Notes: generated by a model not told the origin, from the letters alone. Positions 10,000 through 30,350 are shown, numbered from the stretch's first letter. The stretch: 64,000 nucleotides of DNA from Spirochaetota bacterium (GCA_026418195.1 JAOABU010000116.1:2977-66976); one strand, 5' to 3'. Program-made: numbers and translations.

Positions 10000-10035
10000 A
10001 GGGTACCTCTCTTTCCTGAAGTTCTAATAGGTGTC

Positions 10036-11331: not shown

Positions 11332-11377
11332 ACCTTCTCCTTACATATTTGTGCCTTTCTGGCAATTTCGTGTACTG

Positions 11378-12133
11378 CTATACGCGGTCTACTTTTAACC
11401 CTTCCGCAATTAATGCTTCCAATGCTTGTTCAGGAAGTTCTTTATCAGTAATGATTCGATGGATGCGATGGAGGGGTAGAACATGAACGAAGCCTACCTT
11501 CCCGAATTTGGTACTGTCTGCTACCAGAATCGTTTCCTCTGCTTGAGCAGCCATCCGTTTTACGATTTCAGCCCCTTCCACTAGGTAAGTGGTAAGACCT
11601 TTTTCCAGAGTGAACCCATCAGTACCTACAAAGGCTCGTCTTACATGGAACCGTTCTAGTTCCGATAGGGCGATGGGGCCTACGAAGGACTCGGTTTGAG
11701 GACGGAACTCACCCCCTACTAAGGTTAGCCGCAGGGATGGATTGGCTCGAGCATAGGGAAGAAGTAGGGAATTGTTACTTACGATAGTGATATCCCGTTT
11801 GCCCAAAAGGTATCGAGCAATGAGGGCCGTTGTTGAACCGGCCTCGATCATAATGGTATCCCCATCCTCCACAATAGAAGCGGCTGCTTTGGCGATCCGG
11901 TTCTTTTCGTCAGTCCGTTTCCGTATCTGTTCCATCATGGTAGGGTGAAAAGTAGGAAGTGCACCGCCCCAGGTCCTGAGAACATAACCCTTTTCGGACA
12001 AAGCATTTAGGATTGATCGTATAGTCACTGCCGAAACTTTGAGGGTTTTTCCCATTTCAGCGATACCCATTCCAGGATTCTCACGGAGGAGTTCCAACAG
12101 GTCCTTTTCCTTTTCAGTCAGATTGATTGGCAT
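11378..12133 (-). CDS. DeoR-family transcriptional regulator
   Basis: 251 aa. N-terminal HTH (LLELLRENPGMGIAEMGKTLKVSAVTIRSILNAL) followed by a DeoR-C sugar-phosphate-binding-like domain. It is divergent from kamA and 46 nt upstream of the E2 gene. Confidence 0.85.
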   Translation of the reverse strand: MPINLTEKEKDLLELLRENPGMGIAEMGKTLKVSAVTIRSILNALSEKGYVLRTWGGALPTFHPTMMEQIRKRTDEKNRIAKAAASIVEDGDTIMIEAGSTTALIARYLLGKRDITIVSNNSLLLPYARANPSLRLTLVGGEFRPQTESFVGPIALSELERFHVRRAFVGTDGFTLEKGLTTYLVEGAEIVKRMAAQAEETILVADSTKFGKVGFVHVLPLHRIHRIITDKELPEQALEALIAEGLKVDRV

Positions 12134-12345: not shown

Positions 12346-13677
12346 ATGATGCAGAAATCGATCCCCATAGAAGAGGATCCCCCCAGTCTTTCGGAGGACC
12401 CTCCGGAGCCTAGTGCGGCGTTGAGGGAGGGCCTCCAATCTTCCCATCTATCGTCTTCGGACCTTCCGAATAGTTCGGATGCATCTACTATCCCCATCAA
12501 ACGGCTACGTGTTCTAAAACCCCAACGGGAGCAAAGTGGAGATCTCAAAGGGTTCAGGCAGAGGTTCTATCCCCATGTCACTAAAGCCGAATGGAACGAT
12601 TGGCGTTGGCAATTAGCCCATCGAATTACCTCATACGAAGAATTGGGGAAAATCCTCTATCTGTCCGATCACGAAACGAGGATTTTCCAGGAAAGTGGCA
12701 ATGGGTTACCCCTGTCTATCACACCCTACTACGCGAGTCTATTGGATCCGAAGAACCCCCTTCAGGCCCTTAGACGTTCTGTAGTACCGGTCTTTTATGA
12801 GAAGGTGCTCAGTGCTGGAGAGAACGTTGATCCTTTGGGAGAAGACCATGATTCTCCTGTTCCCGGTCTGGTACATCGGTATCCTGATAGAGTCTTGTTT
12901 CTGGCTACCTATGCATGCTCCACCTACTGCCGGTACTGTACCCGATCGCGGGCTGTAGGACATCAGGAGACAGGAGATATTCGTAGTCGTTGGGAGCAGG
13001 CCATCCAGTATATTCAGGAACATTCCGAAGTTCGGGATGTACTCATTTCGGGGGGAGATCCTTTAACCCTTCCCGATGAGTCCATCGATTATATCCTGTC
13101 GAGGGTAAGCGCCATTCCCCATGTGGAGTTCGTTCGGATTGGCACAAAGGTGCCTGCAGTTTTACCCCAACGGATTACCCGATCCCTCCTAAAAGTCCTG
13201 AAAAAATACAGACCTCTGTGGATGAGTATCCACGCTACTCATCCTGATGAGCTGACTCCAGAAATGAGGGCTGCATGCAACCGCTTAGCCGATGCAGGGA
13301 TACCGTTGGGCAGTCAAACGGTTCTCCTTGCGGGGATCAACGACTCTGTGGAAACCTTACGGAAACTCTTCCATGGTCTCCTGACGGTACGGGTCCGGCC
13401 CTATTACCTCTATCAGTGTGATCCTATTCCTGGTTCGGGACATTTCCGAACCTCGGTGAAAAAGGCTTTGGAAATCATGCAAGGTCTTCGAGGGTTCACC
13501 ACGGGGTATGCAGTACCGACCTATGTGATCGACGCACCTGGAGGAGGGGGCAAGATTCCACTACTACCCGAGTATGTGGTAGGGTACGAGAACGGTGACC
13601 TTCTCTTACGAAATTTCGAAGGGAATACGTATCGGTACCCTGATCCCGGAGCAGCAGAGGGAAACTGTATCCGATGA
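12346..13677 (+). CDS. kamA: lysine 2,3-aminomutase (radical SAM, KamA family) with an N-terminal acidic Ser/Pro-rich extension of about 60 aa
   Basis: 443 aa. Radical-SAM CSTYCRYCTRS (CxxxCxxC), the KamA N-terminal motif AEWNDWRWQLAHRI, and the KamA C-terminal region. This is the first gene after the AT-rich promoter region. Confidence 0.85.
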   Translation: MMQKSIPIEEDPPSLSEDPPEPSAALREGLQSSHLSSSDLPNSSDASTIPIKRLRVLKPQREQSGDLKGFRQRFYPHVTKAEWNDWRWQLAHRITSYEELGKILYLSDHETRIFQESGNGLPLSITPYYASLLDPKNPLQALRRSVVPVFYEKVLSAGENVDPLGEDHDSPVPGLVHRYPDRVLFLATYACSTYCRYCTRSRAVGHQETGDIRSRWEQAIQYIQEHSEVRDVLISGGDPLTLPDESIDYILSRVSAIPHVEFVRIGTKVPAVLPQRITRSLLKVLKKYRPLWMSIHATHPDELTPEMRAACNRLADAGIPLGSQTVLLAGINDSVETLRKLFHGLLTVRVRPYYLYQCDPIPGSGHFRTSVKKALEIMQGLRGFTTGYAVPTYVIDAPGGGGKIPLLPEYVVGYENGDLLLRNFEGNTYRYPDPGAAEGNCIR

Positions 13678-14654
13678 GAACCATCGGTCTTACCTATGAT
13701 TTGAAGGATGACTATCTCGCCGCTGGCTTCTCGACGGAAGAGGCGGCGGAGTTTGATTCCCCGCAAACGATTCAAGCTCTAGAAGATACGATAAGATCTC
13801 TTGGGTTCCAGGTGGATCGGATTGGGAACCTACGGGTGTTGATGAGACGGTTGCTAGCCGGAGATCGGTGGGATCTGGTGTTCAATATTGCCGAAGGAGC
13901 TCGAGGTCCAGGCAGGGAGTCCGAGGTTCCCTGCCTGTTGGAAGCCTTTCGGATACCCTATACCTTTTCCGATCCTATGGTGCTTGCCCTCTGCCTGCAC
14001 AAAGGTATGACGAAACATGTAATCCGGGACAATGGTATTCCTACCTCGGATTTCATCGTCTTACAACAGGCGAAAGAAGTTGAGAAGGTAAGACTTCCAT
14101 TTCCCCTTTTTGTGAAACCGGTGGCAGAAGGAACTGGAAAGGGGGTATCCACCCACTCGAAGGTGGAGAGCGCCGAAACTCTTCGAAGGACAGTAACCCA
14201 ATTACTGGAGAAGTTCCAGCAACCCGTGTTGGTAGAACGGTTTCTCCCTGGGAAAGAGTACACGGTAGGAATTATAGGCACCGGTTCTGAGGCAGAGGTG
14301 ATCGGAGGGATGGAGATTCGGTATGGGAGTTCTGCCGAGGGAGAGATCTATTCCTATTCGAACAAAGCTCAGTACGAGGGCCGGATTTCTTACCACCCCA
14401 TCGAAGGGCCTGCGAAGGAAAAGGTTTACCAGATAGCATTGGATGCCTATCGGGTTCTTTGTTGTAGGGATGGGGGAAGGGTAGATATTCGGGAGGATGA
14501 GAGGGGAGAACCTCAATTCATGGAGATCAACCCTCTTCCCGGTCTTCATCCGGTGGATTCGGATCTACCGATCCTTGCCCGTCTCCACGGCATGCCTTAT
14601 ACTCGTCTGATCGAAAGAATCCTAACCTCCGCTTGTAAAAGGAACGGGCTCTAG
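13674..14654 (+). CDS. ATP-grasp ligase of the D-alanine--D-alanine ligase (Ddl) family, substrate unknown
   Basis: 326 aa. Ddl-like N-domain (FNIAEGARGPGRESEVPCLLEAFRIPYTFSDPMVLALCLHK), a central ATP-grasp fold (LFVKPVAEGTGKGVS...VLVERFLPGKEYTVGIIG) and a C-terminal MEINPLPGL metal/ATP loop. The start overlaps the kamA stop (ATGA), implying translational coupling. Confidence 0.75.
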   Translation: MRTIGLTYDLKDDYLAAGFSTEEAAEFDSPQTIQALEDTIRSLGFQVDRIGNLRVLMRRLLAGDRWDLVFNIAEGARGPGRESEVPCLLEAFRIPYTFSDPMVLALCLHKGMTKHVIRDNGIPTSDFIVLQQAKEVEKVRLPFPLFVKPVAEGTGKGVSTHSKVESAETLRRTVTQLLEKFQQPVLVERFLPGKEYTVGIIGTGSEAEVIGGMEIRYGSSAEGEIYSYSNKAQYEGRISYHPIEGPAKEKVYQIALDAYRVLCCRDGGRVDIREDERGEPQFMEINPLPGLHPVDSDLPILARLHGMPYTRLIERILTSACKRNGL

Positions 14655-14661
14655 AGGCGGA

Positions 14662-16890
14662 ATGAACCGTTCTGAACCTCAACTATTGACCTTTCAAATT
14701 ACCCAGGCAGAACGGCTTCGTGCTCGAAGGCTTTTCAACGTTTTTTCAGTTTTCAACACCTTTTCCTACCTATTGCTCAGTGGCAATATCCTTTCCCTCT
14801 ATCTTCTTCGACTGGGGGCCAGCAGTACCCTCATCGGGATCATTTCTTCTTTTGCCTACGTTTCTTTCTTTTTCATGCTTCCAGGCCGGGTCATTGTCCG
14901 AAAGGTGGGGGTTTCAAGATTGTTTGCTTACTGCTGGACCGCCCGGTACCTGGCGGCTATCCCCTTGGTCCTATCCCCTTTCTTCATCCTGAGGGGACAG
15001 GGTAGGGTTGGTTTTTCACTGGTAGTTCTAGGAGCTCTTGGATTCCAGGTGATGAGAGGGATAGGTTTGGTAAGCAACAGTCCCATCATGGGGGATCTTT
15101 CAGAGGGGAAGGATAGAGGAGATTACCTATCTCGAATTCAGATCATTACCCACACGGTTTCCATTGTAACGGGTCTTCTGATGGCTTTTTCCTTAGGTAC
15201 CGGACAAGCTTCTCTATTACGGTATTCCTTTTTGATCCTTCTGGGAATCCTATTGGGTCTAGTGGGGTGTATGTTCCTATTCAAACTTCCTCTGCACCTT
15301 GGGGGAGGATTCCCTATGGAAGAGGGGGTGTTCACTTCGATCAAACGTGCACTGAGAGAGGCTTCTTTTCTCCGCTTCATAAAGGTGTTTGCGCTAGTGA
15401 TGGTAGTAGCGGGGATTACTCGTCCCTTTCTGGTTCTCTACTCTGCCGATGTGTACCAAGTGAGTGACAGTACAAACATGTACCTAACCGTAGTGGGAAG
15501 CCTAGGGGCTCTTACCATGGGAATGGTTGCCCAACTTCTTCTTGATCGAGTGGGACCCAAACCCATGCTGATCTTCTTTACCTTCATTTTTTTTCTTAGC
15601 ATGTTTCCCATCGTTCTGGCGATTCCATTCCATGGATGGGGAGAGTACGTGTATCTAGGGATTCTGTTCTTTTTCTTTCATTTTGGAACACTGGGACAGG
15701 AGAACGCTTCTCAAACCTACTTTTACGGAGTAGTGCGGCCCCAGGATCAGATGGATCTTGGAATTCTTTACTATCTGATTTTTGGGTTGGGAGGTACCAT
15801 AGGTTCTGCTCTAGGCGGCGTGATACTGGATGGAATCCACTCCCTTGGATTAGGGGATGTAGCCTCGTACCGTATTTTTTTTGGGGGAGGTATGTTCCTC
15901 ACCTTCGTCGCTTTACTCTGGATGTCCCGTCTCTCACCCATAGGCTCGGTCGGCGTTCGGAATGCCTTAACCATCATGTTTTCTGCTCGAGACATAAGGG
16001 CCATCCTTCTCCTAAATAAACTGGATCGTACCACTTCCATAGAGGCTGAGAGACGGGTGATACGGGAAATGGGTGAAACCCCCTCCTCTGTATCATTGGA
16101 AGGTCTCCTGCAGCGACTGAGATCGCCTAGTTTTATCATCCGAAGAGAGGCCCTGCAGGCCTTAGAGACCCACGAACCGGATGATCGGGTAGTAGAAGCT
16201 CTATTACATGAATTGAAGACAGGAGAGTTCACCACTGCGTACTTAGCGGCAAGGATTTTGGGTAAGTATAGGATTCATAGGGGGATACCCCTTCTTCGGT
16301 TGTCCCTTCATTCTGAGGACTACCTTCTGGCAGCTGAAAGTATGGTAGCTCTGGCTCGGCTTCAGGATGCTCAGAGCAAAGGAAAGATCGAGGCTTTCCT
16401 AAAAGTGGCAAAGAACCCCTTTCTCATCATTCATGGTGCAGAAGCGGTGAAGATCTATCAGGATCCTTCTTCTATCAACCTGCTACTGGAACTGGCAGAA
16501 CGACCGGAGCTTAACGATTCGGTCCGTAACCATGTAATTTTAGGAATTGCTGGACTCTTAAGAATGGAGGATTGGTTCTATCCGATCTTTACTGTCTTTT
16601 TAGACGAACCCTTCAAAGGGATAGATTTTCTCCTAGATCCCTTGTTAGCTATTCCTAAAGAGAGGGGTCTTCCTTACAGTAGAGAGCAGCTGATGGATGC
16701 CTTCTACTCCATCCCTCGGGATCCCTTGCAGTTTGGAACCTTTGCCAGGGAAATAGGGGGGAGTTGGGAAACCCTTCAATCCTTGCCCATCCCCTTCTAT
16801 AAAGAATCTCTCTATAGGATCCCCGCGACAGCCTTCCTCTTAGGAGGAATTATCGTCTACTATACCCTCATAAGCAAGGATCAGGAATAG
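14662..16890 (+). CDS. MFS-type transporter (about 12 TM) fused to a C-terminal cytoplasmic HEAT/PBS-lyase-like repeat domain
   Basis: 742 aa. Residues 1 to about 430 are serial hydrophobic helices with an MFS-like layout. Residues from about 440 to 742 are soluble, with repeated helical motifs (RREALQALETHEPDDRVVEALLHEL / AYLAARILGKY / LLAAESMVALARL) resembling HEAT-like repeats. It lies 7 nt after the ATP-grasp gene. Confidence 0.65.
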   Translation: MNRSEPQLLTFQITQAERLRARRLFNVFSVFNTFSYLLLSGNILSLYLLRLGASSTLIGIISSFAYVSFFFMLPGRVIVRKVGVSRLFAYCWTARYLAAIPLVLSPFFILRGQGRVGFSLVVLGALGFQVMRGIGLVSNSPIMGDLSEGKDRGDYLSRIQIITHTVSIVTGLLMAFSLGTGQASLLRYSFLILLGILLGLVGCMFLFKLPLHLGGGFPMEEGVFTSIKRALREASFLRFIKVFALVMVVAGITRPFLVLYSADVYQVSDSTNMYLTVVGSLGALTMGMVAQLLLDRVGPKPMLIFFTFIFFLSMFPIVLAIPFHGWGEYVYLGILFFFFHFGTLGQENASQTYFYGVVRPQDQMDLGILYYLIFGLGGTIGSALGGVILDGIHSLGLGDVASYRIFFGGGMFLTFVALLWMSRLSPIGSVGVRNALTIMFSARDIRAILLLNKLDRTTSIEAERRVIREMGETPSSVSLEGLLQRLRSPSFIIRREALQALETHEPDDRVVEALLHELKTGEFTTAYLAARILGKYRIHRGIPLLRLSLHSEDYLLAAESMVALARLQDAQSKGKIEAFLKVAKNPFLIIHGAEAVKIYQDPSSINLLLELAERPELNDSVRNHVILGIAGLLRMEDWFYPIFTVFLDEPFKGIDFLLDPLLAIPKERGLPYSREQLMDAFYSIPRDPLQFGTFAREIGGSWETLQSLPIPFYKESLYRIPATAFLLGGIIVYYTLISKDQE

Positions 16891-20425: not shown

Positions 20426-22243
20426 TCAGGAAAAAAGTACTTTCAACGCTGTGTCTACATTCCCGAATGGAGCACTCACCTGTACCCCCGCAACGAATGG
20501 ACGAATAGCTTGAATGATTTCCCGGGCAATGGCGATCCCCGTAGCTCGCGCTTCCTCCCTGGATCCTGCTTTTTCCATCCGTTCCATGATCGACTGGGGG
20601 ATTCGAACCCCGGGCACTTCATTGTTAAGAAACCGGGCATTCTGCAAGGAAGCCAAAGGCCATACTCCTGCAATCACCTTCAGTCCTAGATGACGGGTCC
20701 GTTCTAGGAAGGTGAGGAGGGCCTCCACATCGTACACTGGTTGGGTGATACAGAAATCTGCCCCTGCTGCTACCTTCTGTGCCAATCTGGAAAGTTCTCG
20801 TTCCTGATCAAGGTGGGTTGGATCGGCACCGACTCCGATGAGAAAGGTGGTTGGCGGATTCACCTCCTTGCCGCCGATGTCTACCCCCTGGTTCAGTCGA
20901 TAAGCGATACGGGTAAGACCAATGGAGTCCAGGTCGAATACAGCTGTAGCTTGGGGATAATCTCCTAGCTTTGGAGGATCACCGGTTATGATAAGTAGAT
21001 TCTTTATCCCTGCAGCGGCACACCCTAACAGGTCGGACTGTAGCCCAATGATGTTCTTGTCCCTGCAGGTTACATGGAGGACGGTTTCTATTCCAGCTTT
21101 CTCCTGAATCCGAAGGGCTGTAACCATGGGATTGATCCTTGAGCTTGCCCTTGGACCATCAGGAATATTGATGGCATCTACCCCCGCTGCTTTACAGAGT
21201 CTAGCCTTCGATAGGATCCCCGAGAGGTCGTACCCCAACGGTGGGGTTAACTCTACACTGGTAACCCATGAACCAGCTTCAAGTTTTGCCCCCAATTCGC
21301 TTCGGGATTCTCGGGGGGGTGGGGTACGGAGGGTAACTGTGGGAGTAGGGGTTGAGATCTCTACCCGATGCCGAAAGAACGCTTTTACTGAACGCGCTGT
21401 CTCTGCAATATGGGCCGGAGTGGTGCCGCAGCATCCTCCGACTGCCGAGGCTCCCATTTCAGCGAACCGTTTTGCGTAAGTCGCGAAGTATTCTGGAGTG
21501 GTCATGTAGATCATCCGGTCATGAACCAACTGAGGGTAGCCGGCGTTGGGCATGATGAGAACCGGAAGAGGGGCATGAGGAAGAAAATCTTCCAGGTATT
21601 CCAACATCTGTTTCGGACCAACGGAACAGTTGAAACTGATCATGAAGGGTGGATGGGAAAGTTCGAGGATAGGTGCAAAGAACTCCTCGATCCGCTCGCC
21701 CGCTCGGGAGATGTTTCGTTCTCCAAAAGCCAGGCTCCCTATATAGGGAATCCCGGCTTCGGAAGCAGCTTTCGCAGCGATCTTCAACTCGGCTGATCGT
21801 GAAAAGGTTTCGAAGATAATGAAATCCACCCCACCTTCCTGTAATCCTAGTATGGGTTCAAGGAAGGCTTCCAAAGCGTCCCGTTCCTCGATATCTTTAC
21901 CTACGATTTTCCCTAAGGGTCCTACAGAGCCTGCTACATACAGCTCATCCCCAGCTACATCCCGCGCTAGTTCAGCAGCACTCTTTGCGATGGAGCGAAC
22001 CCTATCTGCCAGAAGGTATTCAGCAAATTTGTATCGATTCGCTCCAAAACTGTTGGTAGTGATTACATCACAACCTGCGTTCTTATGTTCCTCGTGGATC
22101 GTGCGGACTACCGAAGGTTTGCTGACGCAGAGTTCTTCGAAGCACACGTTGATAAAATGGTTTCGATTGTACAGTTCTGTACCCATCGCTCCGTCGAAGA
22201 TGATAGGTGGTTTCTTTAAAAGTTCTTCGATTGATCTTCGCAT
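20426..22243 (-). CDS. bifunctional homocysteine S-methyltransferase / 5,10-methylenetetrahydrofolate reductase
   Basis: The N-terminal Hcy-binding domain (IIFDGAMGTELY..., ...GGCCGTTPAHI zinc-binding Cys) is followed by an MTHFR domain (HVTCRDKN..GLQSDLLGCAAAGIKNLLIITGDPPKLGDYP). Start trimmed to the ATG at 22243 (MRRSIEELLKK); the upstream ORF-track extension is not Hcy-methyltransferase-like. No cobalamin-binding domain is present. Confidence 0.8.
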   Translation of the reverse strand: MRRSIEELLKKPPIIFDGAMGTELYNRNHFINVCFEELCVSKPSVVRTIHEEHKNAGCDVITTNSFGANRYKFAEYLLADRVRSIAKSAAELARDVAGDELYVAGSVGPLGKIVGKDIEERDALEAFLEPILGLQEGGVDFIIFETFSRSAELKIAAKAASEAGIPYIGSLAFGERNISRAGERIEEFFAPILELSHPPFMISFNCSVGPKQMLEYLEDFLPHAPLPVLIMPNAGYPQLVHDRMIYMTTPEYFATYAKRFAEMGASAVGGCCGTTPAHIAETARSVKAFFRHRVEISTPTPTVTLRTPPPRESRSELGAKLEAGSWVTSVELTPPLGYDLSGILSKARLCKAAGVDAINIPDGPRASSRINPMVTALRIQEKAGIETVLHVTCRDKNIIGLQSDLLGCAAAGIKNLLIITGDPPKLGDYPQATAVFDLDSIGLTRIAYRLNQGVDIGGKEVNPPTTFLIGVGADPTHLDQERELSRLAQKVAAGADFCITQPVYDVEALLTFLERTRHLGLKVIAGVWPLASLQNARFLNNEVPGVRIPQSIMERMEKAGSREEARATGIAIAREIIQAIRPFVAGVQVSAPFGNVDTALKVLFS

Positions 22244-22339
22244 CAAAAGGAAGCATATCAAAAAACATCCTTTGATGGAAGAATCGAAGATTGATTCAAT
22301 AATTGGATCTGGGTATGATTCTTCACCAAGGAGAACAAT

Positions 22340-22858
22340 ATGATTCATAGGATCGGAAATCGGGTACCTTACACAAAGGATGCAGCTTTTATTGCTTGGA
22401 ATGCAGAAGTGTCTGGGTCTGTAACTCTGGGAAAGGATGTAAGTGTGTGGTTTGGTGCTGCCCTTCGGGGGGATATAGAACCGATTACAGTAGGTGATGG
22501 GACCAACATTCAGGATAATGCTACCTTGCACACCGATTTCGGTGCTCCTTGCACGGTTGGAAAAGGGGTAACTATTGGCCATAATGCGGTGATCCATGGG
22601 TGCACGGTAGAGGATGGGTGCCTCATTGGGATGGGGGCAGTAATCCTAAGCAGGGCTGTGATTGGAAAGGAATCGATTGTAGGAGCGGGAGCTTTGGTAA
22701 CTGAAGGGAAGGTATTCCCTCCCCGATCGTTGATCCTAGGAAGTCCTGCCAAGGTAGTCCGCACTCTGGACGATACCGCGGTGGAGGGGATCCGAAAGAA
22801 TAGTGACAACTATATTAAACTAGCGAAAGAGGCGGCAGAAAACTATCAAGAAGGTTAA
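22340..22858 (+). CDS. gamma-class carbonic anhydrase family protein (left-handed beta-helix, hexapeptide repeats)
   Basis: 172 aa. Hexapeptide-repeat composition with the conserved His ligands pattern (...HTDFGAPCTVGKGVTIGHNAVIHGC...), typical of the YrdA/CamH/PaaY family. Confidence 0.8.
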   Translation: MIHRIGNRVPYTKDAAFIAWNAEVSGSVTLGKDVSVWFGAALRGDIEPITVGDGTNIQDNATLHTDFGAPCTVGKGVTIGHNAVIHGCTVEDGCLIGMGAVILSRAVIGKESIVGAGALVTEGKVFPPRSLILGSPAKVVRTLDDTAVEGIRKNSDNYIKLAKEAAENYQEG

Positions 22859-23841
22859 TGCAGCCTCTGGATGATCTTTTCGACCGGTACTTCCCGATCG
22901 ATCAGGCCTAACCGTTTGAGGGTACTGATGGAATCCTTGTATACAGTAGGATCAATGCTTCCAAACGGTCCTGTGGTTTCAAAGAGGGTACAGGTTTCCT
23001 TGAGGACCGTTTGTAAAAACTTCCCCTTTACAGGATCTGGTTTACCGATATAGGGGTAAGAAACCTGATACGCTTCCTCTTGATGCTGTATAGTATAGCG
23101 AATGGCCTTCTCAGTAGCCCGAACAAAGGCTCCCAATACTCCCTGTTTTTTCGATAGGATAGAAGTACTGGTAATGAAGGAGGCTCCAACCATAGAAGAA
23201 AAATCCTTTACATCCCATTGCACGATCCTAATTCCCGATTCTTTTAACTGGATGGGTTCGTTGTTCGAGAAACATACAGCCCCATCCACTCGATCAGCTA
23301 GTAAAGTGGAAATCTGGGTGTAACCAATCCGCTCGATCTTTACTTTTTCCTTTAACTGGAACCGTTCCAGAAATAATTGTAATCCGATCCAACTGGTACC
23401 GTACAACTCTGGAGTCCCGATGGTCTTTCCCTTAAAGTCCTCAGGTGTTTTTATTCGGTCTGCTTTTGCCAGGATGGTCACGGGGTACTTCTGGTAGTAC
23501 TGGAAAATCGCTCGTAGATCCACCCCTTTTGACGCTGCGATGATCAGTTGGTCCGAATCGGAAAGCCCTAAATCGATCTTGCCAGCTGCTAAAAGGGAAA
23601 AGATATCCATGCCGAACCCATACTCGATTTCCAAACGCAACCCTTCTTCCCTATAGAACCCCTTTTCTATCCCAAGGTAGAGAGGGGCGAACTGGATGTG
23701 AGGAATGTATCCAATGGCTACCCGAATCGTTTGTTCCTGTGCCCTCACGGATTGGAGCCCGGGACAGGATAAAAGTCCCCAAGCGAGTACTATTCTGAGT
23801 ACCCAATTCGGGAGTTCCTTTTTAGAATGTATCCTATGCAT
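22855..23841 (-). CDS. ABC transporter substrate-binding protein, NMT1/THI5 (SsuA/TauA/ThiY-like) family
   Basis: 328 aa. Signal peptide, then a periplasmic-binding-protein type-2 fold of the NMT1-like family (VAIGYIPHIQFAPLYLGIEKGFY...). It lies adjacent to the ABC ATPase-permease gene. Confidence 0.75.
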   Translation of the reverse strand: MHRIHSKKELPNWVLRIVLAWGLLSCPGLQSVRAQEQTIRVAIGYIPHIQFAPLYLGIEKGFYREEGLRLEIEYGFGMDIFSLLAAGKIDLGLSDSDQLIIAASKGVDLRAIFQYYQKYPVTILAKADRIKTPEDFKGKTIGTPELYGTSWIGLQLFLERFQLKEKVKIERIGYTQISTLLADRVDGAVCFSNNEPIQLKESGIRIVQWDVKDFSSMVGASFITSTSILSKKQGVLGAFVRATEKAIRYTIQHQEEAYQVSYPYIGKPDPVKGKFLQTVLKETCTLFETTGPFGSIDPTVYKDSISTLKRLGLIDREVPVEKIIQRLH

Positions 23842-23847
23842 ACAAAA

Positions 23848-25488
23848 TCATCCTCCTTCGCTGGAGAGTTGCCGTAATCGGGGCGGGGGGGTCAAGAGAC
23901 GCTTCCGGATCCAGTAGTAGGATAGGGAGGCGATTCCATAGTAGAGAAGTCCCAGGGTAATGAGCCAGATCAAGGCTACGAACATCATCTCTATATCGAA
24001 GTTGGCTTTTGCCCGGTTCACTAGAGCTCCCAAACCTTCATGGCCGGAAACGAACTCTCCTACTACCGCTCCGATCACCGATAGAGTGATGGAAATCTTT
24101 ACTCCGCTGAAGATCCCCGGTAGCGCAGCGGGAAACTCCATCCCGAATAAACTCTGGAGTTTACCGGGTTTGTAGAAACGGATCAAACACTGAACCCGTT
24201 CCTCCGAATGTCGAAACGCGGCAATGATGTTGATCAGAAGAGGAAAGAAGATCACGATCACCGAAGTGACGATCCTAGGCAGGATCCCGAACCCGAACCA
24301 AAGCACCAGGAACGGTGCAAGGGCTACCGATGGGATCGTGTTGGCTCCGATAAAGTAGGGCATTAGCAAGCGGGAAAGGAACTTGAACTTGGCGATGCCA
24401 AACCCTACGATCATGCTCAATGCAAAGGCGATCCAAAAACCTAGTAGGGATTCGGTCACCGTGAGTTCCAGGTCGTGGAGGATGGTACCATTCAGAAGAG
24501 TCTCCACAAACTTTTTTAAAATCGACCTGGGGGCAGGGAAGATTAGATCTGGGATCGCTAGAGCATGCTTCAAGAAATCGATTAGGAAAAAGAGAAGCAA
24601 CACTTCAAAAGGAAGGAGAAGGGTGCTCCAGTGGGTTTTTATGTACCGGAGGATCTGTTTTCCCGTAAAAAGGAGGGTACTCCCCGAGATATTACCGGTA
24701 TGCGATGGTGTAGCTGGTTCGGAAGCAGGTCGTTCTATCTCTGTTTCCCAAAGGAATTGCACTTCTCGTCGAATGGAACTGTTCACTTCCTGTTGTGCCT
24801 CCGTAAGAACAAAGAGGCCATTAAGGGATTTCCCTTCACCTATCAGGTTTTTTTCGATCGTTTTGATATCAAGGATCCGTCCCGGCAGAGGGGAAAGGAC
24901 GTAGATCCGGTCGGATAGGAAACAGGCTTCTTCCACAGAGTGGGTAACGAGAATCACCGTGGTCTTTCGGGTGGAATGCAATCGTTTCACGAGAAGGTTC
25001 AATCGTTCCCTAGTGATAATATCGAGGGAAGAGAAGGGTTCATCCAGTATCAAAAGATCTGGTTCAGTGATGAGGGCCCGGGCAATCTCGACTCGTTTCT
25101 TCATACCGCCGGATAGTTGGTGAGGGAAATAGTACTCGTATCCTTTGAGGCCGACGGAATCAAGGACTTCTATTGCCCGGAAGGTGAGGGATTCAGAAAG
25201 GGGGACCTGCTTCAGTTGAAAGGGAAGAAGGACGTTATCCAGCACATTCTTCCATTCTAGGAGAGTATCGTGCTGGAACACGAGGGAGATCCGTTCCGCA
25301 TCGATGGACAGCTCTCCTTTCCAGCCTTTCTGAAGGCCTGAAAGGATATTCAATAGGGTAGTTTTTCCGCAGCCTGAAGGTCCAATGAAACTAACGAACT
25401 CCCCCCTTTCGATAGCGAAGGTCAATTGGGAAAGGATTTCCGTTTCACTAAAGGAAAAGGATAAGTTTCTGGCCAAGACTACGGGCAT
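23848..25488 (-). CDS. ABC transporter, fused ATP-binding (N-terminal) and permease (C-terminal) protein of the nitrate/sulfonate/taurine type
   Basis: Walker A GPSGCGKTT, ABC signature LSGGMKKRVEIARAL, Walker B LILDEP, then about 6 TM helices with a BPD-transp-1-like EAA region. Start trimmed to the ATG at 25488 (MPVVLARNLSF). Confidence 0.75.
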   Translation of the reverse strand: MPVVLARNLSFSFSETEILSQLTFAIERGEFVSFIGPSGCGKTTLLNILSGLQKGWKGELSIDAERISLVFQHDTLLEWKNVLDNVLLPFQLKQVPLSESLTFRAIEVLDSVGLKGYEYYFPHQLSGGMKKRVEIARALITEPDLLILDEPFSSLDIITRERLNLLVKRLHSTRKTTVILVTHSVEEACFLSDRIYVLSPLPGRILDIKTIEKNLIGEGKSLNGLFVLTEAQQEVNSSIRREVQFLWETEIERPASEPATPSHTGNISGSTLLFTGKQILRYIKTHWSTLLLPFEVLLLFFLIDFLKHALAIPDLIFPAPRSILKKFVETLLNGTILHDLELTVTESLLGFWIAFALSMIVGFGIAKFKFLSRLLMPYFIGANTIPSVALAPFLVLWFGFGILPRIVTSVIVIFFPLLINIIAAFRHSEERVQCLIRFYKPGKLQSLFGMEFPAALPGIFSGVKISITLSVIGAVVGEFVSGHEGLGALVNRAKANFDIEMMFVALIWLITLGLLYYGIASLSYYWIRKRLLTPPPRLRQLSSEGG

Positions 25489-25603
25489 CCCTCTGCAATA
25501 TAGTGCTAGAGCGGGCTCTGTCAAGGGTGATGCCCAGAGAAAGTAACGCTGGGGTTGTAAAAAGCGGTCAGAATACGGTACAAGTATCCCCATAGGGGGG
25601 ACT

Positions 25604-27796
25604 ATGCCAAAGAAGGAGCCATTGCCACTACAAGGGAACCTGTTTCGATTCGTGCCTACAGAGAAGGAGATTCAATCCCTTCCGAAAAAGAAGCGGGTTC
25701 GAATGCTCTTTGAATTGTTTGTGATTCGCGAGTTCGAGACCCGCTTGCTCGAATTGAAGGATGCGGGGTTGGTACATGGCCCTGTGCATTCCAGTATCGG
25801 GCAGGAAGGAGCAGCCGTAGGAGTGATGAGCGCGTTGGATCCCAGGGATGCAGTAGCTTCCACCCATCGGGGGCATCATCATTTTCTTGCTAAGGCCTTC
25901 GGGTACTACTTACGTGACTACGATCCTGAGACTCAAGTTCCCGTAGAATTACATCAACTTCTGGAACGAACCCTGGCAGAGATCATGGGGCTATCTCAGG
26001 GGTTCTGCCGGGGTAGAGGGGGTTCTATGCATCTAGGAGATAAGGGATGCTACTGTTATGGAACGAATGCCATTGTAGCAGGGGGAGTCCCCATGGCAAC
26101 GGGGCTTGGGTGGTCTTTTGCGTTGAATAATGAGCCTCAAGTGGCGGTTTCTTTTCTAGGGGATGGGGCAGTTCACCAGGGGGTGGTACACGAAGTGATG
26201 AATATGGCGAACCTATGGAAGATACCTGTCATCTATTTCATCGAGAATAATCTGTATGCGGTAGCTACCTCTGTGAAAGAAGCGTCTGCTGTTTCCCGGT
26301 TGGCTCAGATCGGAATGGGATATGGACTTACCTGCCTAGTGATCGACGGGATGGATCCTGATACGGTGAGGCTTGCGGTTCAATTCGCTCGAAAAGGGGC
26401 TGTTGAAGGAGCGGGACCTTTCTGGATTGAGGCTGAAACGTACCGGTATCGACACCATGCCCAAAGCCTTCCGGGGAGTGCCTTTGGGTACCGGGATAAA
26501 GAGGAAGAACAGAGGTGGCAAGAGCGAGATCCCTACCGTACCTACTCGGAAAAACTTATTCGAGAGAAGGTCTTGAGCGAAGATAGAGTTTCCCAGTTAA
26601 AAATACATGCAAGCCAGATAGTACAAAGGGTGGTAGACAAACTGGTACAAAAGCAAGGGGTATCCCTAGTGGTACCGGAAGATCTATACCCGAGGGCAGA
26701 GGAGCTAGAGATCGGTATCCGGAGTAATGGAAAGGAACTGGAAACCCTTCCCTATACGGAAGATCCATGGGTCGAGTTAGAGGGGTCTCATCCAGTATCC
26801 CTACCACCGGATGGGGAGAAAAAAACTTACGTGGATGTGATCTCTGAAGTGATTGGAAGACGGATGGAACAGGATTCCCGAGCATTCGTGATTGGGGAAG
26901 AGGTAGGACACCTTAAAGGGGGGGCCTACATGGCCACCAAAGGTCTCTCTAAGCGGTTTCCAGGAAGGGTGATCGATACCCCTATTTCGGAAGCAGGGTT
27001 TACGGGCATGTCCTTAGGGTTGGCTTTGTCGGGGAAGCGTCCGATCGTGGAGATCATGTTCCCTGATTTTGCACTGGTGGCGGCGGATCAACTGTTTAAC
27101 CAGATCGGGAAATGTAGGTTTATGTACGGAAACCAGCACGATGTTCCCTTGATCGTTCGAACCCGGGTGAGTATCGGTACAGGATATGGAGCCCAGCATT
27201 CGATGGAGCCAGCTTCTCTCTTTGCCTTGTTCGAAGGGTGGCGTATCGTAGCTCCTTCTACCCCCTTCGATTACATTGGGTTGTTCAATACTTCCTACCA
27301 TAGTCTGGATCCCGTTCTAATCATAGAACATCAAGCTCTTTACCCAATGGAAGGGTGGGTGCCAAAGGATCGGGACTACTGTATTCCCTTTGGGAAGGCC
27401 CTCATTCGAAGGAAAGGAAAGGACGTTACGGTAGTGAGTTATTCACGCATGGTACATCGTGTCCTGGAAGCCGCAGAACTCCTTAAAAATAGAGGAATAG
27501 AAGTGGAAGTGATCGATCTAAGAACCCTGGATCTATTGGGTGTAGATTACGAAACAATTGGTAAGTCCTTGAAAAAGACGGGGCGACTCTTGATTGTGGA
27601 GGAGGGTCACCTATATGGCGGAATCGGAGGACACATGGCCGATGAGGTGCAACGGAGATTTTTCGACGAACTGGATGGGGAGATCCTTCGTTTGGGGGGA
27701 AAGAACCTTCCCATGCCAGTGTCGAAACCATTAGAAGCGTTGTGCATTCCCGATGTGAAGGATATCGTGGTGCAGATCCAAAGTGCTTTGCAGTAG
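25604..27796 (+). CDS. second fused E1-alpha/beta 2-oxo-acid dehydrogenase-family TPP enzyme (paralog of 7543..9999)
   Basis: 730 aa. N-terminal E1-alpha-like half (IREFETRLLEL..., GDGAVHQGVVHEVMNMANLW TPP motif) and C-terminal E1-beta/transketolase-like half. No E2 gene is adjacent. Confidence 0.8.
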   Translation: MPKKEPLPLQGNLFRFVPTEKEIQSLPKKKRVRMLFELFVIREFETRLLELKDAGLVHGPVHSSIGQEGAAVGVMSALDPRDAVASTHRGHHHFLAKAFGYYLRDYDPETQVPVELHQLLERTLAEIMGLSQGFCRGRGGSMHLGDKGCYCYGTNAIVAGGVPMATGLGWSFALNNEPQVAVSFLGDGAVHQGVVHEVMNMANLWKIPVIYFIENNLYAVATSVKEASAVSRLAQIGMGYGLTCLVIDGMDPDTVRLAVQFARKGAVEGAGPFWIEAETYRYRHHAQSLPGSAFGYRDKEEEQRWQERDPYRTYSEKLIREKVLSEDRVSQLKIHASQIVQRVVDKLVQKQGVSLVVPEDLYPRAEELEIGIRSNGKELETLPYTEDPWVELEGSHPVSLPPDGEKKTYVDVISEVIGRRMEQDSRAFVIGEEVGHLKGGAYMATKGLSKRFPGRVIDTPISEAGFTGMSLGLALSGKRPIVEIMFPDFALVAADQLFNQIGKCRFMYGNQHDVPLIVRTRVSIGTGYGAQHSMEPASLFALFEGWRIVAPSTPFDYIGLFNTSYHSLDPVLIIEHQALYPMEGWVPKDRDYCIPFGKALIRRKGKDVTVVSYSRMVHRVLEAAELLKNRGIEVEVIDLRTLDLLGVDYETIGKSLKKTGRLLIVEEGHLYGGIGGHMADEVQRRFFDELDGEILRLGGKNLPMPVSKPLEALCIPDVKDIVVQIQSALQ

Positions 27797-27817
27797 TCAC
27801 AGTAGGAGGGAACAAAG

Positions 27818-29026
27818 ATGGAAACCTTACAGGAAGCCTTCCTAGAAAAGTATGGTAAGAAAGAGTATCGGATTGTGAGGTCCCCTCTACGAATCTGTCC
27901 TCTAGGGGCTCATGTGGATCATCAACACGGGTACGTAACCGGGATGGCCCTTGATGCATCCATCTATTTCATGTATTCCCCAGATCCGGAAGGGTATATC
28001 CGCGTGCAGAGTCTAGATTTCCCCGATGAGGAATACTTCCATTTAAACCATGTACCCGACATGATTCCTGGATACTGGGGAAACTACCTACGAGGAGCAG
28101 TCCTTTCCTTAGGTCGTCAGTACAAACTCCGGAAGGGTATACAGGGAGTAATCCGAGGTAAACATCCCATCGGTGGGTTATCCTCTTCGGCTGCCGTACT
28201 AACCGCTTACCTTATGGCTCTAGCTGAAGTGAACGATGTAGTCCCTACGAAGGAGGAACTGATTCGCTTAAGTCACTGGGTGGAAACGGATTTCATCGGT
28301 TTGAATAATGGGATCTTGGATCAGTCTGCCAATATCCTTAGTAAGGATGGTCACCTGATGGTGATGGATTGCCGTTCCGAACAGTACGAGCTGGTTCCCA
28401 AGCATCCCCATATGCCCCCGTATGAGATCATAGTGGTGTATTCAGGGATCAGCACCGCCTTGATGGGCACGGATTACAACAATCGGGTGGATGAATGTAA
28501 GGTAGCTGCCTGGATCTTGCAGGAACTAGATTCTGGGAAAGTTTCCTCGTTAAAACAGGTGAGATTACGGGATATTGACCCTGCGCTCTATGAGACGTTG
28601 AAAGATAAACTACCGGGACGATTCAGAAAAAGGGCAGAGCATTTCTTTACCGAGAACCAGCGGGTACTGGATGGAGTACGTTATTGGAGGCAGGGGGATC
28701 TATCGAAGTTTGGGAGCCTTATGTTCCAGTCAGGGGAAAGTTCTATTCGGAACTATGAATGTGGTTGCCCGGAGTTGATCACCATCTTTGAAATACTAGC
28801 CTCCTCCAATGGAGTGTATGGAGCTCGGTTCAGTGGAGCTGGATACCGGGGTTGCTGTATCGGGTTAGTAGATCCAGCGATGAAAGAAGCCGTCCGGGAG
28901 CGGATCCAATCTATCTATCCAGAACGACATCCGAGGTACAAGGATGTGTTCAAGGTTTACTTCAGTAAGACTGCGGATGGGGCTCGATTCCTCACCCCGG
29001 AAGAAGTTCGACAATTCTCTGAATAG
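27818..29026 (+). CDS. GHMP-family sugar-1-kinase (galactokinase-like, COG0153)
   Basis: 402 aa. Galactokinase-signature-like PLRICPLGAHVDHQHGYV and GHMP ATP-binding motif PIGGLSSSAA. RBS GGAGGG lies upstream. Confidence 0.75.
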   Translation: METLQEAFLEKYGKKEYRIVRSPLRICPLGAHVDHQHGYVTGMALDASIYFMYSPDPEGYIRVQSLDFPDEEYFHLNHVPDMIPGYWGNYLRGAVLSLGRQYKLRKGIQGVIRGKHPIGGLSSSAAVLTAYLMALAEVNDVVPTKEELIRLSHWVETDFIGLNNGILDQSANILSKDGHLMVMDCRSEQYELVPKHPHMPPYEIIVVYSGISTALMGTDYNNRVDECKVAAWILQELDSGKVSSLKQVRLRDIDPALYETLKDKLPGRFRKRAEHFFTENQRVLDGVRYWRQGDLSKFGSLMFQSGESSIRNYECGCPELITIFEILASSNGVYGARFSGAGYRGCCIGLVDPAMKEAVRERIQSIYPERHPRYKDVFKVYFSKTADGARFLTPEEVRQFSE

Positions 29027-29046
29027 ACTCCTGTAAAGGGCAATGT

Positions 29047-29787
29047 ATGAAATGTGTACTTCTTGTGGCGGGGTTTGCTACTCGCCTGTATCCTTTGACC
29101 CTCCATACTCCCAAACCTCTTCTGGAGGTAGGAGGCAAGACGATCCTGGACAGGTTGATAGAAAAATTAGAGGAAATTCCTTCACTCGACGAGGTAATCC
29201 TAGTAAGTAATGGGAAGTTCTTTTCTACTTTTATTCAATGGGCATCGAAGTGTACCTTCTCTAAAAAGCTCACAGTTCTGAACGATGGTGCCCTGGATAA
29301 TGAACATCGGTTGGGGGCGGTAGCGGATCTGGAGTTTGCGGTTCGAAAAAAGAACATGATAGAGGATACTTTGGTATTGGCAGGTGACAATCTGTTCGAT
29401 TTCTCCTTAAAGGCCTTTGTAGATTTTTTTTATACCAAGGGAGCAGATTGCATCACTGCCCACCGGGTAGAAGATCCAGAGCAACTTAGGCGAACGGGTG
29501 TAATCATCGTAAACTCTGAAAGCAGGGTGCTGGAGTTCGAGGAGAAACCGAAACATCCGAAAAGTAACTTAGCGGTTCCTCCCATCTATCTGTACCGCTC
29601 AGATACTCTGCCCCTGTTAAAAATCTACCTGGAAGAGGGAAACAACCCAGATGCACCAGGGAACTTCATACCTTGGCTTCTCCGACGGAAAGAAGTGTAC
29701 GCATACCTGTTCCCAGGCAAGCGGTACGACATTGGCACACCTGAGAGCCTCAAAGAGGTCCGTCGTGTGTATGAGCCCCACACGTAA
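29047..29787 (+). CDS. sugar-1-phosphate nucleotidyltransferase (short NTP-transferase family)
   Basis: 246 aa. N-terminal LLVAGFATRLYPLTLHTPKPLLEVGGKTILD matches the G-x-G-T-R-L nucleotidyltransferase motif. It lies 20 nt after the kinase. Confidence 0.75.
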   Translation: MKCVLLVAGFATRLYPLTLHTPKPLLEVGGKTILDRLIEKLEEIPSLDEVILVSNGKFFSTFIQWASKCTFSKKLTVLNDGALDNEHRLGAVADLEFAVRKKNMIEDTLVLAGDNLFDFSLKAFVDFFYTKGADCITAHRVEDPEQLRRTGVIIVNSESRVLEFEEKPKHPKSNLAVPPIYLYRSDTLPLLKIYLEEGNNPDAPGNFIPWLLRRKEVYAYLFPGKRYDIGTPESLKEVRRVYEPHT

Positions 29788-29831
29788 GGAATTGACAGGA
29801 GATAGGAAAATGGATAGTGTATGGGAAGTGT

Positions 29832-29905
29832 GGGCGACTAGCTCAGTTGGATAGAGTACAAGCCTCCGGAGCTTGGGGTCGTGGGTTCGAATCCCGCGTC
29901 GCCCA
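29832..29905 (+). tRNA. tRNA-Arg (anticodon CCG)
   Basis: Manual fold: acceptor GGGCGAC/GTCGCCC; D-arm GCTC-AGTTGGATA-GAGT; anticodon stem CAAGC/GCTTG with loop CTCCGGA (anticodon CCG); T-arm GTGGG-TTCGAAT-CCCGC; discriminator A. No encoded CCA. Confidence 0.85.
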
Positions 29906-29908
29906 TCC

Positions 29909-30265
29909 TTATTCCAAGGAAAGGTACCTTACAACCTTTTGAACCCTCCGCTCAATCAAATAGTACAGGGCTTGAGGGTATTCCTTCTTTTTGATCAGTT
30001 CCTTGAACTTAGCGAGCACCCCTGCTGAAAGCGCCTCGAGGGATTCATACTCTTCCGTGGAGAAGGTATCTAGGAACTTGAAAAGCGATCGGAGGGCTGC
30101 TATTTCAGCCTGGATGAGGCTAGAGTTTTCCTGTAACACATAGTTGGTTATTTCATGTTTCTGTTCATAACAGCGATAGATTTCGAGGAGCGTATTTAGG
30201 TCTTCCTGTATTTCTTCCAACTCCATCTTGAGGATCGAAAGAAACTTATGGGCTTTTGTTTTCAT
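29909..30265 (-). CDS. hypothetical small helical protein
   Basis: 118-aa ORF with amphipathic-helix / coiled-coil composition. No recognisable motif. Coding status uncertain. Confidence 0.35.
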   Translation of the reverse strand: MKTKAHKFLSILKMELEEIQEDLNTLLEIYRCYEQKHEITNYVLQENSSLIQAEIAALRSLFKFLDTFSTEEYESLEALSAGVLAKFKELIKKKEYPQALYYLIERRVQKVVRYLSLE

Positions 30266-30350
30266 GGGGACCTCCTTCTACACCCCTCATGGTGAATCCA
30301 TTTCTTTTTAATTGTACGCTCAGATAATCCGTTTTACAACGTTTTTCTGT

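Follow-up and report, generated by a model that had tools for sequence, protein, structure and literature searches.

A galacturonokinase-like kinase and a compact nucleotidyltransferase form a conserved bacterial gene pair, predicted to salvage galacturonate and joined in some Spirochaetales by an E1-type enzyme

In a 64,000-nucleotide stretch of DNA from a Spirochaetota bacterium (GCA_026418195.1, JAOABU010000116.1:2977-66976), referred to here as the window, a gene for a fused E1α/β enzyme dependent on thiamine pyrophosphate (TPP) is followed by genes for a GHMP-family sugar-1-kinase and a short sugar-1-phosphate nucleotidylyltransferase. This arrangement raises the question of which sugar the kinase and transferase activate, and whether the E1 enzyme belongs to the same pathway. 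An initial annotation had read the last two genes as a salvage pair for a nucleoside diphosphate (NDP)-sugar and had proposed either a TPP-dependent two-carbon modification of the sugar or unrelated operon sharing, without naming a likely substrate. Here the reading is sharpened to a predicted substrate, D-galacturonate (GalA): the pair probably constitutes a salvage module that converts GalA, via GalA-1-phosphate (GalA-1-P), to NDP-GalA (UDP-GalA), and that is co-transcribed at this locus with an unrelated E1.

Open reading frame (ORF) calls and Pfam matches both placed the three genes on the same strand (Table 1), with gaps of 21 nt between E1 and kinase and 20 nt between kinase and transferase, as first annotated. 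Given that the ORFs are long and the domain matches strong, this pattern is not due to chance: all three kinase domains (PF10509, PF00288, PF08544) exceeded their cut-offs, the E1_dh match in the E1 had an E-value of 3e-57, and the transferase matched PF00483 at 2e-31 (109.9 bits). A site scan of the window revealed no terminator-like site in either gap, a promoter scan revealed no convincing plus-strand promoter for the E1 or the kinase, and the base composition of the block was ordinary. The E1 is probably co-transcribed with the pair.

To place the locus in a wider setting, we scanned genomes, one per species, with two search patterns and retrieved at least 366 kinase relatives, many of them from Spirochaetota and Bacillota of alkaline, gut or digester habitats. 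Eighty loci were examined together with six obtained by exact look-up, giving 86, of which 77 had enough downstream sequence for the transferase to be scored; 75 kinase loci were scored for the E1. The transferase gene lay no more than 150 nt downstream of the kinase in 73 of the 77 loci, lay within 2.7 kb of it in three more, and was absent from one; the two genes frequently overlap or almost do. Carriers include Spirochaeta, Alkalispirochaeta, Marispirochaeta and Treponemataceae among the Spirochaetota, as well as Gracilibacillus, Evansella, Paenibacillus, Amphibacillus, Alkalibacterium, Proteiniclasticum and Natranaerovirga among the Bacillota, together with Acholeplasmataceae and single metagenome-assembled genomes (MAGs) of Polyangiaceae, Bacteroidota and Lentisphaerae. 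The kinase and transferase are the conserved unit of the locus, and their adjacency across phyla supports the proposal of a salvage pair. Conservation of the block as a whole held for these two genes but not for the E1, which was found upstream of the kinase in 8 of 75 loci, all from close Spirochaetales.

The kinase resembles galactokinase (GalK) but fell short of every GalK model applied. It scored 212.4 against a cut-off of 226.65 for TIGR00131, and 126-210 against cut-offs of 385-509 for the remaining GalK models in NCBIfam. Its best PDB matches were GalKs, an exact-sequence look-up gave no match, and its database homologues share 60-68% identity across phyla, several of them already labelled 'galacturonokinase' by JGI/KEGG and NCBI. 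The representative of the Arabidopsis galacturonokinase (GalAK) cluster matched the kinase at 37% identity and 254 bits, as compared with 29% and 160 bits for E. coli GalK. A hidden Markov model (HMM) of 114 plant GalAKs gave the window kinase 319.5 bits versus 106 bits for E. coli GalK, and the converse model, built on the bacterial kinase family, gave plant GalAK 344-362 bits versus 179 bits for GalK. On these scores, the bacterial family is reciprocally nearer to plant GalAK than to GalK. The initial annotation had held that a plain Leloir galactokinase with galT/galE nearby would count against its proposal. No galT or galM of the E. coli type was detected in the 86 loci or in the window, although a divergent Firmicute-type GalT could escape detection, and a true galE was present in just 2 of the 86 loci. 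Judged by its sequence, the enzyme is GalAK-like and not a Leloir galactokinase.

Both kinase motifs quoted in the initial annotation, GAHVDHQHGY and PIGGLSSSAA, are present in the translation; the sugar-binding signature reads G-A-H-V-D-H where GalK has G-E-H-T-D-Y. Comparison of 120 bacterial and 29 plant sequences with three GalKs identified 30 positions that are common to GalAK and the bacterial family yet differ in the GalKs, including E→A31, Y→H35, N→Q36 and G→R344. The loss of a negative charge (E→A31) and the gain of a positive one (G→R344) near the sugar site would fit binding of a C6 carboxylate. We take the galactose site of GalK to comprise Arg37, Glu43, His44, Asp46, Gly183, Asp186 and Tyr236. 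By alignment with human and L. lactis GalK, six of these seven residues are kept in the kinase (R25, H32, D34, G165, D168, Y220), and the seventh, the Glu, is Ala31, which is invariant across the family. The retained Y220 corresponds to the Tyr that reads the axial C4-OH, which argues for a galacto over a gluco configuration. Residues A31, Y220 and A341, the last an Ala in the SGAG motif, align exactly with Arabidopsis A41, Y250 and A368, reportedly the positions mutated by Yang and colleagues in 2009.

The transferase scored below every NCBIfam equivalog cut-off among RmlA, GalU, GlmU, GlgC, MurU, ManC and HddC (at best 76.8 versus 292), its best PDB match had an E-value of 2e-16, and its similarity to dTDP-, GDP- and UDP-forming enzymes was roughly equal. 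The N-terminal loop had been described as GxGTRL-like; the actual sequence is AGFATRL, within a variant AGxATRLYPLT..K loop that retains the Arg and Lys of the standard (G)GxGTRLxPxT...K, and the motif L-x-A-G-x-A-T-R-L-Y-P-L-T is found family-wide. An exhaustive HMMER search with the transferase as query uncovered natural fusions. One of these, P0366, joins a member of the transferase family (48% identity) to a GAE-like epimerase that is 54% identical to the epimerase encoded beside the pair in other loci, and another, P0495, joins the family to a canonical GEHTDY galactokinase. The same search returned a fusion with a HAD hydrolase (P0500). An apparent kinase–transferase fusion, P0361, was discounted, as it looks like a truncated GalAK-like kinase reading through into the transferase.

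The commonest genes around the pair elsewhere are those of uronate and polysaccharide synthesis. Approximately 21 of the 77 loci have next to the pair a gene for UDP-glucose 6-dehydrogenase (UGDH; NF011631, 672 bits), for a GAE-like 4-epimerase or for both, ordered either as UGDH–epimerase–kinase–transferase or as epimerase–kinase–transferase–UGDH, and clustering of neighbouring genes showed that UGDH and this short-chain dehydrogenase/reductase (SDR) 4-epimerase are the two commonest neighbours. From its pairing with UGDH, we infer that the epimerase acts on UDP-uronates; plasmid annotations call its family merely 'NAD-dependent epimerase', and PDB 5U4Q, its best structural match, was set aside because no function could be attached to it from the literature. 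Genes for GT2 glycosyltransferases, and for a protein with a sugar-transferase N-domain, are likewise found repeatedly near the pair. On a Lactococcus garvieae plasmid (L172; CP066001.1, record 26060-30348), the module lies inside a classical exopolysaccharide locus, with a priming transferase, a tyrosine kinase and phosphatase, and several glycosyltransferases. There the order is epimerase, frameshifted kinase, unannotated transferase remnant and UGDH, with the epimerase annotated as 'GDP-mannose 4,6-dehydratase' and the kinase split into two 'hypothetical proteins'; this copy is a decaying version of the module. Taken together, the UGDH and epimerase neighbours, the P0366 fusion, the glycosyltransferases and the exopolysaccharide locus point to a UDP-GalA/UDP-glucuronate (UDP-GlcA) product pool with glycan synthesis as its destination.

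A separate observation concerns uptake. A solute-binding protein of the DctP type, from the tripartite ATP-independent periplasmic (TRAP) transporter family, is encoded near the pair in four Spirochaetaceae loci (L011, L017, L032, L046), and in L011 its gene is directly upstream of the E1. It is a possible candidate for a uronate uptake component.

The E1 itself is an intact TPP enzyme of a catabolic 2-oxoacid/carbonyl family. The residues of its GDG...NN TPP motif (G186, D187, G188, N215, N216) are invariant or near-invariant in the family, and it scored below the pyruvate dehydrogenase (PDH) E1 equivalog cut-offs, with PDH E1β and E1α as its best matches; an entry from a 'Spirochaetes bacterium' MAG at NCBI is 100% identical to it. 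Scoring in the converse direction, the kinase was present in 2 of 84 E1-family loci, namely the two closest (88% and 73% identity). Relatives at 48-59% identity, from Phycisphaerae, Anaerolineae and others and the nearest outside the Spirochaetales, lie in GntR-LarA-SDR-aldehyde dehydrogenase-E1 clusters without an E2, some of which also encode AFOR, Zn-ADH, PTA-AckA or a protein of the enolase superfamily. At 42-47% identity, the E1 is usually followed directly by an E2, and these loci often also encode a glyoxalase-fold or dihydroxyacetone-kinase-like (DAK) protein; across the family, around one third of loci have an E2 directly downstream, and genes of NitT/TauT-type transporters occur near the E1 in about 10 of 84. 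Two further observations concern the family as a whole. The E2-less loci with GntR/FCD, LarA, SDR and aldehyde dehydrogenase genes (L087-L090, L094-L097) suggest that this E1 subfamily acts independently of an E2 in some hydroxy-acid or sugar-acid pathway. A protein of 1027 aa (P0231) joins E3-binding and E2 catalytic domains to a fused E1, with no lipoyl domain listed.

In the kinase tree, the loci with a linked E1 make up one clade and part of a second. The sisters of that second group have other genes upstream, such as those for a glycyl-radical enzyme and its activase; in L016 and L020, a glycyl-radical enzyme takes the place of the E1. The E1–kinase gap is 238 nt in L011, and in L009 the two genes are 3.3 kb apart, with a response regulator, a histidine kinase and a binding protein encoded on the opposite strand between them. 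In the main clade, the E1–kinase adjacency is part of a longer stretch of conserved gene order, i.e., metH, an LbH protein, a solute-binding protein, the ATP-binding cassette (ABC) transporter, E1, kinase, transferase, a 118-aa ORF and parE, and it resembles inherited gene order. The ABC genes are collinear with the E1 in L001, L007, L009 and L010; L011 has the same order interrupted by an insertion. The E1 thus looks like a lineage-specific neighbour and not a conserved partner of the pair. The divergent ABC transporter may be its real partner. The initial annotation's remark that it has no E2 partner is right at the locus, but an E2 gene lies 14 kb upstream on the minus strand, beside the other fused E1 of the window, and the E1 may use that E2. 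The other E1 is preceded by the E2 and a DeoR regulator in a block spanning 7543-12133 (-). The two E1s share 32% identity and so are not recent duplicates; no E3 gene was found in the window.

Several characterized systems resemble parts of the locus. Plant GalAK (At3g10700 type, EC 2.7.1.44) is, like the window kinase, a GHMP kinase with a GalK-type N-terminal signature, and both have the motifs RICPLGAHxDHQ, NGILDQS, AEHxFxEN and GVYGARFSGAGxRGCC, Ala at the GalK Glu position, and the C4-reading Tyr. With UDP-sugar pyrophosphorylase (USP, 'Sloppy'), plant GalAK follows the same two-step logic from sugar to sugar-1-phosphate to NDP-sugar. The second plant enzyme, however, is a large USP of the UDPGP family encoded away from GalAK, whereas here the host is bacterial and a 246-aa transferase of the RmlA/GalU fold (PF00483) is encoded directly beside the kinase. 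Leloir GalK (TIGR00131; PDB 1PIE, 1WUU) has its fold and catalytic Arg/Asp pair in common with the window kinase, which differs in reading GAHVDH instead of GEHTDY and in having a nucleotidyltransferase partner with no galT or galM nearby. The E1α and E1β subunits of PDH, branched-chain 2-oxoacid dehydrogenase and acetoin dehydrogenase have the same three domains and TPP motif as the window E1; unlike these heterotetramers, the window E1 has α and β fused in 730 aa, scores below all equivalog cut-offs and adjoins no E2 or E3. In zebrafish, DrGKUP is a glucuronokinase fused to a uridylyl-pyrophosphorylase (PMC3938481). In it, as predicted for the window pair, a uronic-acid 1-kinase works together with a short nucleotidyltransferase of bacterial type to salvage uronates as UDP-uronates (PMC3938481), although its kinase is of the glucuronokinase (GlcAK) branch of GHMP kinases and is fused, whereas the window pair is encoded by separate genes. 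Bacillus cereus is described as having an operon for de novo UDP-GlcA and UDP-GalA synthesis that encodes UDP-glucose dehydrogenase and UDP-glucuronate 4-epimerase (PMC3240692, PMC7984243). Genes of these two enzyme families lie beside the pair in roughly one locus in four, which implies a shared product pool. The B. cereus route starts at UDP-glucose, whereas the pair would start at free GalA, and the window has neither de novo gene.

On this basis, the following route may be proposed. The source of free D-galacturonate could be degraded pectin or acidic polymers of the cell itself as they are turned over. The GHMP kinase would phosphorylate its C1 with ATP, D168 serving as base with assistance from R25 as in GalK, and the transferase would then join GalA-1-P to a nucleoside triphosphate, giving NDP-GalA. 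Both steps are predicted from homology, discriminating residues and context. The likeliest nucleotide is UTP, a choice that we infer from the epimerase fusion and from neighbours that are UDP-specific. In loci that encode the epimerase, UDP-GalA and UDP-GlcA would be interconverted, and glycosyltransferases would spend the product on acidic envelope polysaccharides or exopolysaccharides. The E1 would form a separate unit outside this sugar-nucleotide chemistry, in keeping with a family that acts in the catabolism of small carbonyl compounds and 2-oxoacids. The pair would add a new and so far uncharacterised bacterial example to the kinase/pyrophosphorylase salvage systems, and automatic annotation had already hinted at its kinase half.

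The principal alternative to an unrelated E1 is a single three-gene pathway, in which the E1 moves or removes a two-carbon unit on the sugar, its 1-phosphate or the NDP-sugar, so that the product is an NDP-sugar that is branched, decarboxylated or a ketose. In some antibiotic clusters, E1α/β-like proteins are implicated in the formation of branched sugars, and the tight spacing and terminator-free gaps would suit such a pathway, as would an adjacency that is kept in eight Spirochaetales loci, down to 61% E1 and 64% kinase identity, and that persists in L022 although the upstream ABC genes are lost there. The pair nevertheless occurs without the E1 in 67 of 75 loci and is missing from 82 of 84 E1-family loci, where E2, SDR, aldehyde dehydrogenase, LarA, DAK and GntR are found instead. 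The three opposite-strand two-component-system genes that separate E1 and kinase in L009, the glycyl-radical enzyme of L016 and L020, and the inclusion of the adjacency in a wider collinear housekeeping block (metH, ABC, parE) tell against it as well, and no NDP-hexose 4,6-dehydratase or other gene for an NDP-keto-sugar was found in the window. We therefore consider a single pathway very unlikely; the counts of the two genes beside each other (8 of 75 and 2 of 84) speak against the two-carbon modification first proposed and favour its stated alternative, operon sharing. In a variant, the E1 would have been recruited into a uronate route in this Spirochaetales lineage alone, so that the three genes make or consume an undescribed sugar derivative; it might act, for example, on a keto-uronate or NDP-4-keto-uronate arising from the pair's product, or tie GalA breakdown to an acyl-TPP intermediate. 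Behind this stand the tight junction over a moderately deep clade and the sugar-acid-type genes beside the E1 family in other phyla (enolase-superfamily dehydratase, LarA-like epimerase, SDR, aldehyde dehydrogenase, DAK), and we hold it to be the least probable of the readings considered.

As to the substrate, the pair could instead activate another sugar, such as galactose bypassing GalT, glucuronate, an amino-uronate or a pentose, perhaps with a nucleotide other than UTP. The closeness of the kinase to the GalK cut-off (212 versus 227 bits) and its top PDB matches would agree with this, as would the P0495 fusion, the even resemblance of the transferase to dTDP-, GDP- and UDP-forming enzymes, and the adjacent 4-epimerase, through which either GlcA or GalA could enter the same pool. 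Opposed to it are the Glu→Ala change, invariant in the family and otherwise found only in GalAK, the roughly three-fold preference of the plant GalAK profile for the window kinase over GalK, the retained Tyr, and the lack of galT, galM or, save for two loci, true galE with the pair; this reading appears unlikely. The pair could also be catabolic, a Leloir-like entry in which GalA from pectin passes via GalA-1-P to UDP-GalA, is epimerised to UDP-GlcA and is processed onwards. Its carriers do include the pectin degrader Natranaerovirga pectinivora and spirochaetes of termite gut and digesters, and the DctP binding protein recurs in four loci, but the commonest neighbours are biosynthetic (UGDH, GT2, priming sugar transferase, exopolysaccharide loci), these loci hold no known enzyme that would return UDP-GlcA to central metabolism, and a non-exhaustive search found no uxa/kdg-type genes beside the pair. 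We regard a catabolic role as quite improbable. Several points weigh against the galacturonate salvage module too. The kinase is no more than 37% identical to plant GalAK; P0495 implies that the transferase scaffold is not in itself uronate-specific; and the epimerase found beside the pair has among its characterized structural relatives both the UDP-GlcA 4-epimerase of B. cereus and UDP-HexNAc 4-epimerases, its scores against the former and against WbgU, one of the latter, being about equal. UGDH, epimerase and glycosyltransferase genes are absent near the pair in the window clade. With 10-50 nt between the two genes, the junction of E1 and kinase is tight, and it is kept from 96% to 64% kinase identity, which makes some functional coupling at the level of the lineage conceivable. 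Finally, literature searches yielded only work on plant GalAK and on plant and zebrafish GlcAK, with no biochemical assay of a bacterial member of either family.

Table 1. Positions of the three-gene block and associated features in the window
Feature	Position	Strand	Details
Fused E1α/β TPP-dependent 2-oxoacid-dehydrogenase-type enzyme	25604-27796	+	730 aa; E1_dh, Transket_pyr, Transketolase_C
GalAK-like GHMP sugar-1-kinase, predicted D-galacturonate 1-kinase	27818-29026	+	402 aa; GalKase_gal_bdg, GHMP_kinases_N, GHMP_kinases_C
Short RmlA/GalU-fold sugar-1-phosphate nucleotidylyltransferase, predicted GalA-1-P nucleotidylyltransferase	29047-29787	+	246 aa; NTP_transferase
AGGAGG Shine-Dalgarno for kinase ATG, within E1–kinase gap	27803..27808	+	Read from sequence
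tRNA-Arg(CCG), directly 3' of transferase gene	29831-29908	+	Rfam 63.8 bits; ARAGORN
Divergent ABC uptake system	22855..25593	-	Pfam and NCBIfam matches
NMT1/SsuA-like binding protein of divergent ABC system	22855-23841	-	
Fused ATPase-permease of divergent ABC system	23848-~25489	-	
Other fused E1α/β	7543-9999	-	818 aa
E2 (lipoyl, E3-binding, catalytic domains)	10036-11331	-	Adjoins other fused E1

The remainder of the window is occupied by housekeeping genes, i.e., rpsB-tsf-frr-uppS-cdsA-dxr, parE/parC, RNase Y, der, grpE-dnaK-dnaJ and pur genes, with no genes for the Leloir pathway, pectin or glycosyltransferases among them. The nearest genome locus belongs to an uncultured Spirochaeta MAG (L007; kinase identity 96%). 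A whole-window Rfam scan returned the tRNA as its sole match, with no TPP or other riboswitch between the ABC transporter and the E1. A near-consensus promoter-like site at 25524..25497 (-) falls inside the called ABC ATPase-permease ORF, the start of which is thus over-called, with the true start at approximately 25489. The 118-aa ORF at 29909-30265 (-) has no family match; it occupies the same position in L001, L008, L010 and L011 at 44-89% identity and is, given this positional conservation, probably a real gene. Elsewhere in the window, the region 12346-16890 (+) encodes a KamA/lysine-2,3-aminomutase-like radical-SAM protein (473 bits to AblA, below cut-off), followed by a D-Ala-D-Ala-ligase-like ATP-grasp protein and a major facilitator superfamily transporter fused to HEAT repeats; this cluster could make and export a compound containing a β-amino acid. 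A homocysteine S-methyltransferase/MTHFR ORF (20426-22597, -) overlaps a gene for a γ-carbonic-anhydrase/PaaY-like hexapeptide protein (22340-22858, +), and its start is also over-called, given that the family match begins at residue 123.

If the proposed module is correct, many bacteria would carry a dedicated two-gene route from free galacturonic acid to NDP-GalA; at least 366 species-level genomes matched the two search patterns. Such salvage has so far been characterised in plants only, and the bacterial version would employ a different, compact pyrophosphorylase. It would explain how acidic wall polymers and exopolysaccharides rich in GalA are fed from pectin breakdown or wall turnover. 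Enzymatic synthesis of GalA-1-P and UDP-GalA failed in the hands of one group, in which plant GalAK proved unstable and poorly active (PMC7984243), and a robust bacterial kinase/transferase pair could fill this gap. For annotation, the kinase family would be separated from the true galactokinases, and the upstream E1 would not be read into the sugar pathway.

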